A stretch of DNA of 13,407 nt, from the NCBI GenBank assembly GCA_038217285.1, contig JBBQPO010000167.1, positions 1-13,407 on the forward strand, in the 5' to 3' direction. The position numbers were made by a program, and so were the translations under genes. This stretch comes from Chthonomonadales bacterium (GTDB lineage: Bacteria > Armatimonadota > Chthonomonadetes > Chthonomonadales > Chthonomonadaceae). The notes under the pieces were generated by a model. It did no database searches and was not told where the DNA came from. It was given only the letters and a program-made list of their open reading frames with translations. Numbering within the stretch: position 1 is the first letter of the stretch; each line of letters begins with the position of its first letter. This document shows positions 1 to 1,663 of this stretch, one piece after another.

Positions 1-49
1 CGTCGACACAGGGTCAGATAAGGCGAACAGCGTTTAACGAGTCGAGAGA

Positions 50-400
50 TCAGGCAAGGGGTGGGCCGCGGGAGGAGGAGCGGAAAGACGGCAGAGCCGG
101 CAGACGGAAATCCGAGAGCGTCAGATCGACGCGCAGAAACAGAGGCTGCGAGACCTGCGGTGCGACGGCCGGAGGCATCACCTGAAGCGACTGCCAATCG
201 CAGACAGGGCAGTGCGCGGGCGCCGAATAGCTCGGGGGCGGCGCGATGGAAGTCTGTCGTGCCCCACAAGCTGTGCTGGAGTTCGGGGCCGTTTCCACGG
301 GGGCGTGCGAATGCGTCATGGCGCCGAACGTGCTGAAAAACAGGTACAGCAGCGACACAAATGCGGCTATTCTTCGGTTCCGTGGCGAAATATGCGACAA
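50..400 (-). CDS. DUF2946-like small membrane protein; putative CruR/CutF-type metal-responsive leader with C-terminal RGPP arrest motif
   Basis: TTG start with GGGAG 7 nt upstream. The N-terminal basic plus hydrophobic segment (RRIAAFVSLLYLFFSTFGAM) is followed by HSH, HCPVC, a Pro-rich linker and terminal RGPPLA-stop, the layout of DUF2946-family proteins. Confidence 0.75.
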   Translation of the reverse strand: MSHISPRNRRIAAFVSLLYLFFSTFGAMTHSHAPVETAPNSSTACGARQTSIAPPPSYSAPAHCPVCDWQSLQVMPPAVAPQVSQPLFLRVDLTLSDFRLPALPSFRSSSRGPPLA

Positions 401-453
401 GAACAGGCTCCCGGAAGTCTCGATACTACTTACTAATACGGTCGTTTCGTTAG

Positions 454-462
454 ATTATAGCA
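454..462 (-). promoter_or_regulatory. Extended -10 promoter (TGcTATAAT) for the 400..50 gene
   Basis: Plus-strand ATTATAGCA reads TGCTATAAT on the minus strand, about 55 nt upstream of the TTG start. Confidence 0.6.
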
Positions 463-625
463 CACCTGCAGCGTCCGATTGAAAAAATTTGATGGCCGCC
501 GAGGACAGATGCAGGAACCGCGTGGAAGCCTGTCGAAGTGTTCCGACAGTTTCGGCAGGGGATTTCGATCTCTTTCCGACCCGTTTTCCCAAATACAAAC
601 CTCCTTTAGAAGGATGCAAAACTCA

Positions 626-1663
626 ATGGCGAAGAAGAAAATCGGCGTGGCTGTCATCGGCAGCGGCAGCATCGCTACCTACCGGCATGCACCCGAATAT
701 GCCGCGCACCCGGATGTCGAGATCGTAGCTTTCGTAGACCGTGTGCCGGAGCGGGCCGAGAAGCTGGCGAAGAAATATGGCGCCAAGGCCTATTCCAAGG
801 TGGAGGATGTCCTGGAGCTAAAGAGCGTCGATGCGGTGAGCATCTGTACTCCGAACGCCTTTCACTCCTCGCTCACCGTCGCAGCCCTGAAAGCTGGCAA
901 ACATACGCTGTGCGAAAAGCCTATTGCCACCTCCGCAAAAGAGGCGCAGGACATGATTGCCGCCGCCCACAAGTCGGGCAAGTTCCTCATGATCGGACAC
1001 AATCAGCGCCTCATGCCCCTGCATGTGAAGGCGAAAGAGTTGCTCGAAGCGGGCGTCATCGGCAAGGTAATCACGTTCCGCACCTCCTTCGCCCATCCTG
1101 GCCCGGAGACCTGGAGTATCGAGGGGCCGACCGGCTGGTTCTTCGACAAGAAGCAGGCGTTCGTCGGCTCCATGGGTGACCTGGGGGTGCATAAGGCCGA
1201 TCTGCTGCGGTTCCTGCTCGGCGAAGAGATCGTCGAGGCGGCCGCCATGGTAGGCCACCTCTACAAACCGATGGGCGATGTGGACGACAACGCTGTCTGC
1301 ATACTTCGTACCGCGAGTGGAGCCATCGGCAGCCTGACCGCCTCCTGGACCCATAACCCCGGCGAGGACAACACCACCACACTCTACGGCAGCAAAGGCA
1401 TCCTGCGCCTCGGCTCCAATCCGCAGTACAGTGTCGTGGTCGAGCTGGCAACCGGCGAAAAGCAGTTCTACTCTGTGGGCAAGGTCCAGACCAACGATGC
1501 GGGTGGCCAGAGCAGTTCCGGTGTGATAGACGCGTTTATCAACTCTATCCAGACTAACACGCCGCCGACAATCAGTGGTGACGAAGGCCGCAAAGCCCTC
1601 GCCATCATCCTGGCCTGTCTCAAATCCTCCGAAACCAAGCAGTTCGTCGCTGTCGAGCTCTAG
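626..1663 (+). CDS. Gfo/Idh/MocA family NAD(P)-dependent oxidoreductase
   Basis: Rossmann motif IGVAVIGSGSIA, plus ICTPNAFH, LCEKP, GHNQR and GSMGDLGVHKAD. Start moved from 479 to ATG 626 (MAKKKIG...), with AGAAGGA at 608-614. Confidence 0.93.
   Translation: MAKKKIGVAVIGSGSIATYRHAPEYAAHPDVEIVAFVDRVPERAEKLAKKYGAKAYSKVEDVLELKSVDAVSICTPNAFHSSLTVAALKAGKHTLCEKPIATSAKEAQDMIAAAHKSGKFLMIGHNQRLMPLHVKAKELLEAGVIGKVITFRTSFAHPGPETWSIEGPTGWFFDKKQAFVGSMGDLGVHKADLLRFLLGEEIVEAAAMVGHLYKPMGDVDDNAVCILRTASGAIGSLTASWTHNPGEDNTTTLYGSKGILRLGSNPQYSVVVELATGEKQFYSVGKVQTNDAGGQSSSGVIDAFINSIQTNTPPTISGDEGRKALAIILACLKSSETKQFVAVEL

Follow-up and report, generated by a model that had tools for sequence, protein, structure and literature searches.

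Introduction

RAPP/RGPP-type ribosome arrest peptides are reportedly treated as a class in work by Sakiyama from 2021 and by Morici from 2024. In this study, we describe a small gene on the minus strand at positions 50-400 of a 13,407-nucleotide stretch of DNA from a soil bacterium of the Chthonomonadales (phylum Armatimonadota), hereafter the window, and we propose that it probably encodes a regulatory arrest leader of the CruR/CutF type that would sense metal during its export. The window forms the start of contig C167 of a 6.2 Mb genome, which is distributed over 459 contigs and 95% complete.

CruR (Bp2923) of Bordetella pertussis is the prototype of the DUF2946 family (Roy et al., 2022; PMC9426467). 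According to this work, the ribosome stalls at the RAPP motif of CruR, and copper relieves the stall via the CxxC motif, leading to Rho-dependent termination in the 162-bp intergenic region and switching the receptor OFF. The hallmarks it gives for the family are CxxC, RAPP ending three residues ahead of the C-terminus, a 45-residue spacing kept to 1-2 residues, an export signal in >95% of members, the first position in an operon and a long intergenic region (PMC9426467). CutF of Rhodobacter capsulatus (cutFOG; Ozturk et al., bioRxiv 10.1101/2025.02.05.636593) is likewise an exported nascent-chain metal sensor of the DUF2946 family, in which a stall at a C-terminal proline motif controls the next gene. 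Here, copper is described to prolong the PPP stall in co-translational secretion, with the effect that a stem-loop covering the ribosome-binding site of cutO is opened. RGPP and RAPP are reported as the most robust arrest motifs, refractory to EF-P, and elongation arrest is demonstrated for CruR among other proteins, with a CruR toeprint in which the P and A sites are occupied by the two proline codons (Fujiwara et al., 2025; PMC12992588). The same report surveyed 52,895 genomes and found that, in Gram-negative phyla, upstream open reading frames (ORFs) with RAPP/RGPP are enriched ahead of genes for TonB-dependent receptors and copper-related functions (PMC12992588).

A Conserved Leader Gene

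The leader gene and the motifs of its product are laid out as follows:

50..400, minus strand: leader ORF of 116 codons plus TGA, a candidate CruR/CutF-like arrest peptide as judged from its sequence and homologues
400-398, minus strand: TTG start codon
317..367, minus strand: predicted N-terminal export signal or signal-anchor (residues 12-28), a hydrophobic run of 18 residues after RNRR, helical in the AlphaFold2 model and conserved in the family
305..313, minus strand: H-S-H, with H30 and H32 as candidate metal ligands where the membrane segment ends on its outer side
200..211, minus strand: C-P-V-C (C64, C67), candidate metal-binding CxxC, followed by a conserved W69-Q
200-214, minus strand: H63-C-P-V-C67, the HCPVC motif with its preceding histidine
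71..199, minus strand: spacer of 43 residues between CxxC and RGPP, fixed in length and variable in sequence, presumed ruler across exit tunnel and translocon
59..70, minus strand: R-G-P-P (R111-P114), predicted ribosome-arrest motif with a conserved S-S-S before it
50..52, minus strand: TGA stop, two codons (Leu, Ala) after RGPP

A first-pass annotation made from the letters alone had already read the 116-residue ORF, its Shine-Dalgarno sequence, an extended -10 element, the hydrophobic segment, HSH, HCPVC and RGPP, and each of these was found again where it had been placed. The leader is a real, conserved gene. A database search returned four homologues with 54-62% identity in which every motif is kept, and a profile built from these four and run against 61 related genomes found matches in 37 of them, including 30 of the 36 that belong to the same family as the window. 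In total, 31 homologous leader ORFs were located on loci fetched from relatives. An exhaustive profile search extended the family to 509 representative clusters at E<=1e-3, of which 111 reach E<=1e-10, all of them unnamed in these searches, and in an even sample of the phylum Armatimonadota 36 of 151 genomes carry a match. Relatives of the window protein come from metagenome-assembled genomes named as Chthonomonadaceae or Chthonomonadales (Armatimonadota). Within the own genome a search for extra copies gave two weak matches only, both interrupted by stop codons. A chance ORF is ruled out by the conservation of both the ORF and its motifs across homologues.

Conservation is concentrated in the motifs. 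In an alignment of 33 sequences with 21-61% identity to the window protein (alignment A2), H30, C64, C67, W69, R111, P113 and P114 are invariant (33/33), and Y19, T24 and H32 nearly so; in a larger set (n = 150), H30, C64, C67, R111, P113 and P114 are again invariant, with W69 close to it. The first-pass annotation had staked its reading on the conservation of CxxC and RGPP in homologues, and this is borne out by the invariance of CxxC and R(A/G)PP in these alignments. All 31 homologues from relatives' loci end in R(A/G)PP, positioned 2-9 residues ahead of the stop (2 residues in 24, 3 in 3, 5 in 2, 7 in 1 and 9 in 1). Among 170 stored family proteins, two of which are the window's own, 163 have R[AGS]PP within <=12 residues of the C-terminus, the commonest endings being RAPP plus two residues (81 proteins) and RGPP plus two (37); six of the seven proteins without the C-terminal motif look truncated and one looks frame-shifted. 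The window's own RGPP has CCA CCC as proline codons (59-64).

The distance between CxxC and the arginine of the motif is nearly fixed. It amounts to 43-46 residues in 162 of the 163 motif-bearing proteins (43 in 123, 44 in 28, 45 in 4, 46 in 7), with 26 in the remaining one, and the spacer block is almost free of gaps in the 33-sequence alignment. AlphaFold2, run with the same alignment, models a helix at residues 6-28 (block predicted local distance difference test score, pLDDT, ~96) and a second, short helix at 65-73 that starts at CxxC, with the spacer as coil and a predicted template-modeling score (pTM) of 0.30. A spacer that keeps its length while its sequence varies, in a protein for which no globular fold is predicted, is best understood as a ruler and not as a folded domain. 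By the positive-inside rule, RNRR ahead of the hydrophobic run suggests an N-in/C-out orientation of the membrane segment.

The Leader Heads a TonB Operon

The gene to the left of the window lies on a separate contig, C320, which starts with 73 nt matching window 1-73 in reverse orientation (96%). The regions downstream of the leader are:

1..49, minus strand: first 49 nt of the leader-exbB intergenic region, 163 nt in total, the rest being on contig C320 (locus L040 74-187)
L040 188-811: exbB, ATG at 188 (PF01618, 1e-32)
L040 824-1243: exbD (PF02472, 3e-29)
L040 1249-2088: tonB, encoding a TonB_C protein
L040 2085-4616: TonB-dependent receptor of 843 residues

The leader heads an operon leader-exbB-exbD-tonB-receptor, with a junction backed by four lines of evidence. 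Besides the overlap itself, a congener (locus L037) has the same gene order, including a divergent oxidoreductase that is 89% identical to window 479-1663; a public contig of 1004 nt carries window 1-155 without difference at its positions 850-1004 and extends 849 nt past window position 1; and the loose contig end of a relative continues in the manner of C320. The first-pass annotation had predicted a co-oriented gene beyond the window edge, which turns out to be exbB, followed by exbD, tonB and the receptor. It had also seen no terminator in the 49 nt after the stop: a minus-strand scan of these 49 nt agrees in detecting no terminator-like site, and no intrinsic terminator lies between the leader and exbB.

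Three genes of the MotA/ExbB family are present in the own genome. A search of it for TonB_C gave a single match even at E<=1, and a search for the receptor barrel likewise a single one; the TonB_C match and the barrel both lie in the leader's operon. The barrel family was used for the count since a Plug-domain search of the own genome (E<=0.001) missed even the receptor of the operon and was too insensitive. The leader therefore stands at the front of the sole TonB-dependent system that was detected in the genome, which is 95% complete.

Across the 31 relatives' loci, the first gene downstream of the leader is distributed as follows:

22 loci: exbB, with exbD next in 20 (the other two loci end first)
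4 loci: TolC-like outer-membrane efflux protein
3 loci (L025, L029, L031): protein with prepilin N-methyl and DUF1559 domains
1 locus: receptor-like protein with a carboxypeptidase-regulatory domain
1 locus: running off its contig, with an ExbB-like N-terminus beginning 187 nt past the stop

In 22 loci the gap between leader and exbB measures 131-448 nt. One TolC-type paralogue (genome G016) is followed by a CusB-type adaptor and a CusA/CzcA heavy-metal RND pump (TIGR00914, 954 bits; cut-off 701), and it is this paralogue that ties the operon position to metal. Both kinds of downstream gene foreseen by the first-pass annotation, TonB-dependent and TolC/RND, occur at paralogues. No sec or yidC gene, the localization-machinery mark of Sec/YidC monitors such as SecM, VemP, MifM and ApdA/ApdP, follows the leader in any of the 31 loci. 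Two loci carry two divergent leader copies each within ~1 kb, those of L016 (G013:C462) heading exbB and a receptor-like gene and those of L027 (G053:C69) heading a TolC-like gene and exbB.

Relation to DUF2946

The hallmarks of DUF2946 recur in the leader: CxxC, a C-terminal R(A/G)PP at a near-fixed spacing, an N-terminal membrane segment, the first position in the operon and a long intergenic region. The relation at the level of sequence profiles was examined with PF11162, leaving out eight proteins (seven without the C-terminal motif and one fragment of 60 residues), and each scan comprised 150 of the remaining 161 proteins in two sets that overlap without being identical. In one set, 62/150 members match at E<=0.1 (best 1.6e-7); in the second, 17/150 do so at E<=5e-4 and 10/150 reach the gathering score of 23.7 bits. 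Most of the stronger matches span almost the full model as far as its C-terminus, where RAPP lies. In the ESM Atlas the neighbors are unnamed proteins of ~118 residues, most often from Acidobacteriota, and 11 of 30 matches fall into clusters in which 12% of the members carry PF11162. The tie to DUF2946 claimed by the first-pass annotation stands for these relatives and not for the window protein itself, which stays below the gathering score and gave noise only in Pfam and NCBIfam scans. We place the window gene in a divergent branch that is sister to DUF2946 and largely overlooked by Pfam; the link runs transitively via relatives and does not amount to Pfam membership.

The likeness to CruR extends over the whole arrangement. 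Both leaders are small, exported (by prediction in the case of the window) and first in their operon; both combine CxxC with a RAPP-type motif 2-3 residues before the stop; the fixed spacing from CxxC to the motif is 45 residues in CruR and 43 in the window leader; the intergenic regions measure 162 bp and 163 nt, respectively; and TonB-dependent uptake genes lie downstream of both (PMC9426467). The window leader differs by its RGPP motif in place of RAPP and by an invariant H30, accompanied by H32, at the end of the membrane segment, where CruR is described with a semi-conserved Cys. Its operon has exbB-exbD-tonB before the receptor and no PepSY gene, and it belongs to Armatimonadota, whereas the main text of PMC9426467 lists Proteobacteria and a few Planctomycetes, Firmicutes and Deinococcus.

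With CutF the family shares a role through its paralogues, which precede detoxification and efflux genes. The differences lie in the CxxxC and the EF-P-sensitive PPP stall motif of CutF, in its downstream gene, a multicopper oxidase, and in the melting of a stem-loop over the cutO ribosome-binding site, a pairing that is without clear support at the window locus (bioRxiv 10.1101/2025.02.05.636593). As in the RAPP/RGPP class generally, R(A/G)PP is found near the C-terminus of a small (<300 aa) predicted secretory or membrane protein upstream of a candidate regulated gene. The leader shares this motif and arrangement with ApdA, ApdP and ApcA and with a set from Streptomyces lividans, one example of which is SLIV_16130 with its conserved Cys/His (Fujiwara et al., 2025; PMC12992588), yet ApdA, ApdP and ApcA are Sec/YidC monitors without His/Cys motifs, and the likeness to them is one of motif and arrangement. 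SecM of Escherichia coli is a further exported leader with a C-terminal arrest motif, RAGP, and a stall relieved by export pull; it precedes secA, senses export instead of a ligand and has a different motif, and no homology is claimed.

Proposed Mechanism and Alternatives

From sequence and from the described systems we model how the leader would be exported, stall its ribosome, bind metal and regulate the genes that follow, including the sign and the route, in this way. An extended -10 promoter of its own would drive transcription of the leader, the first gene of the operon, and the N-terminal signal-anchor would bring the nascent chain to the Sec translocon. The C64-x-x-C67 helix would become exposed, together with H30 and H32, which would lie at the outer face of the membrane. 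By analogy with the CruR toeprint, the ribosome is predicted to stall at R111-G-P-P114, its P and A sites being occupied by the first and second proline codons, respectively. Such a stall would leave a chain of 113 residues, with CxxC 46-49 residues from the peptidyl-transferase center and H30/H32 already outside the membrane, so that the 43-residue spacer would put CxxC at about the translocon while the ribosome sits on RGPP. In force-profile work on arrest peptides, a segment located roughly 46-49 residues from the peptidyl-transferase center is reported to be engaging the translocon. A metal, most likely Cu or Zn, on the His/Cys residues could then alter the pull on the chain and with it the length of the stall, which would set the expression of the downstream genes.

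For the output we favor the logic of CruR because the operon is an uptake system. When metal is scarce, the stalled ribosome would cover the beginning of the 163-nt intergenic region, which is rich in C/U and poor in G, and keep Rho off, leaving the operon ON; when metal is present, the stall would be released and Rho would terminate transcription, turning the operon OFF. In 22 loci, pyrimidines make up 68% of the first 40 nt past the stop and the C-G skew is +0.19, compared with 49.5% and 0.003 in 6464 post-stop windows of the own genome (Mann-Whitney p ~1e-10), and rho is present in the own genome (618.7 bits). The pyrimidine-rich tract, an encoded Rho and the lack of an intrinsic terminator in the gap together favor this CruR-like Rho route for the uptake operon, to which we give a little short of an even chance. 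As an anecdotal observation, the post-stop tract is weaker in three of four efflux-type paralogues.

Several results weigh against this reading of the gene. The downstream operon sits on a separate contig and the 73-nt overlap has three mismatches, one of which turns the TGA of the leader (window 50-52) into AGA in the C320 copy (L040 22-24). We take this AGA as probably a strain variant or an assembly-end error because the public contig and the relatives keep the stop; read as it stands, it would lengthen the leader by 12 residues up to the next in-frame TGA. PF11162 does not match the window protein at E<=1, nor at E<=10 in a search of the own genome. The receptor of the operon gave a weak siderophore-receptor match only in NCBIfam, no OprC-type match and no PDB relative by sequence at E<=1e-3, and does not belong to a known copper or zinc class. 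The genes after three of the paralogues are of the prepilin/DUF1559 kind; they show no obvious link to metals and are accounted for by none of the explanations considered here. As one leader family stands before both uptake and efflux operons, the sign of regulation is not readable from the leader. Finally, the compositional test given above compares 22 related, non-independent loci with a single genome as background.

An arrest leader with a translational output, as in CutF, would leave Rho out of the scheme: the stalled ribosome would melt or prevent a pairing that hides the exbB ribosome-binding site. We regard this as unlikely, although CutF itself operates by such masking (bioRxiv 10.1101/2025.02.05.636593). 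In the minimum-free-energy fold of L040 1-200 the 8 nt directly after the stop do pair with the GGGAG of exbB, but this fold is no better than those of shuffled sequences (z = 0.18). Over 22 loci, moreover, the post-stop tract pairs with the exbB ribosome-binding site no better than other windows (mean -8.1 vs -8.4 kcal/mol; Wilcoxon p = 0.68; best window in 2/22 loci), and its role as a conserved masking strand was rejected on these figures. The segment from the RAPP codons to the stop fares slightly better with the ribosome-binding region (mean -8.9 vs -7.3 kcal/mol; best window in 6/22 loci, including two congeners), yet with p = 0.068 and with the own locus ranking 12 of 23. The proline codons of R(A/G)PP are CCT at each position in 9/22 loci, a set made up of the own locus and 21 related ones that are not independent, vs 15% of the proline codons genome-wide, and CCT-CCN is an anti-Shine-Dalgarno sequence; the excess could reflect this anti-Shine-Dalgarno potential or a codon preference tied to stalling. 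At 131-448 nt from the stall site, the exbB ribosome-binding site would be far beyond the reach of a stalled ribosome unless long-range pairing is involved.

Two further explanations concern the leader itself. An arrest leader that senses the periplasmic redox or disulfide state, or the Sec export capacity, with a CxxC disulfide or translocation supplying the pull that ends the stall, seems improbable to us: CxxC is a classic thiol-disulfide motif too and three paralogues lie ahead of prepilin-type genes, but the invariant H30 and near-invariant H32 by the membrane are hard to fit with a pure disulfide sensor, only two Cys are invariant, and the downstream operons encode TonB uptake and, for a paralogue, a CusA/CzcA pump instead of Dsb or Sec proteins. 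Such sensing has parallels in the CutF model, which counts disulfide formation as a force source (bioRxiv 10.1101/2025.02.05.636593), and in RAPP/RGPP upstream ORFs with Cys pairs that occur before DsbA and thioredoxin genes (PMC12992588). Very improbable, in our judgment, is a functional small membrane-anchored periplasmic metal-binding protein, such as a TonB chaperone or accessory, in which RGPP has no regulatory role. Its conserved His/Cys residues and co-transcription with an uptake system would suit this function, and dual roles are known for some leader ORFs; however, conservation is confined to motif columns while the spacer keeps its length and not its sequence, AlphaFold2 predicts no globular fold, the motif is invariant and always <=9 residues from the stop in the 31 loci, and a long intergenic region is what the regulatory prototypes typically have. 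RAPP-like motifs are, in addition, described as strongly avoided in proteomes save near the C-terminus of small exported upstream ORFs (PMC12992588).

Beyond the metal-sensing arrest leader proposed for this locus, we put forward a wider idea that is speculative and, taken as a whole, rather doubtful. The signal-anchor, His-x-His, CxxC, the 43-residue ruler and R(A/G)PP may constitute a portable nascent-chain metal sensor placed before diverse envelope operons in Armatimonadota and perhaps Acidobacteriota, which would gate the sole TonB energizer and single receptor here and CusA/CzcA-type pumps and pseudopilin genes in relatives. The intergenic RNA might set the sign of the response, carrying a Rho-loading tract in uptake operons and being arranged differently in efflux operons. 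The site of two His and two Cys might assemble across the translocon while the chain is being made, and its ligand might be zinc or another metal, not copper.

Novelty and Implications

The general mechanism and the family are already published. The phenomenon as such is in print (PMC9426467, PMC12992588), and its novelty is smaller than the first-pass annotation had supposed. What is new is a branch mostly missed by Pfam, with an invariant membrane-adjacent His, in Armatimonadota; a leader ahead of a whole energizer-plus-receptor module that is the sole one detected in its genome; and the re-use of the same leader before heavy-metal efflux and pseudopilin operons. Among the 15 papers listed of 131 from a literature search, none joins ExbB with an arrest peptide or RAPP, with the reservation that supplements and figures of the cited papers may list such cases, and a search for Armatimonad and arrest peptide returned one paper only, unrelated by its title.

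To our knowledge, CruR and CutF are the only cases studied so far in which a nascent protein senses a ligand outside the cytoplasm and reports to its own ribosome, and the window would add a locus of the same design from the little-studied phylum Armatimonadota. Relatives of the leader before uptake and before heavy-metal efflux operons offer a natural pair of opposite outputs with one sensor design, and in the compact one-receptor system of the window the metal that is sensed and the substrate that is transported can be tied together. For annotation, such "hypothetical proteins" should be called regulatory leaders.

Promoter Region and Neighboring Genes

Upstream of the leader and around its operon we recognize the following features:

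454..462, minus strand: extended -10 element TGcTATAAT, putative promoter of the leader operon, a conserved box
415..440, minus strand: box in the 5' untranslated region between -10 and Shine-Dalgarno, with partly invariant columns in the five-member genus alignment (A4)
408..412, minus strand: Shine-Dalgarno sequence GGGAG, 7 nt before the TTG
479-1663, plus strand: GFO/IDH/MocA-type oxidoreductase, divergent to the leader, 89% identical and in the same place in the congener

Since a two-hexamer promoter scan found no -35/-10 pair, the promoter was called from the extended -10 element. The promoter box TGTGCTATAAT is invariant in 5/5 genus members, and TGnTAnnnT occurs within <=150 nt upstream in 23 of the 31 family loci. 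A search for RNA runs that contain the stretch listed none. GGAG is likewise invariant in 5/5 genus members, and its distance to the TTG or GTG start is also kept. The box in the 5' untranslated region has the form CGTAT..AGTAGT..AGAGACT, common to the five genus members, and could be an operator for a metal regulator, as a second layer of control, or an RNA element. As listed, the oxidoreductase ORF has a TTG start at 479 and would overlap the leader promoter region; its conservation begins near residue 36, and its true start is therefore probably further in.

On the far side of the operon, an ORF of 114 codons follows the receptor (L040 4746-5090, plus strand); neither Pfam nor NCBIfam gives a match for it, and the operon may end with this gene. 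An ORF at L040 5391-6254 (minus strand), running convergently toward the end of the TonB operon, encodes a pretoxin-HINT domain and, C-terminally, a domain of the Colicin D type, and represents the tip of a polymorphic toxin.

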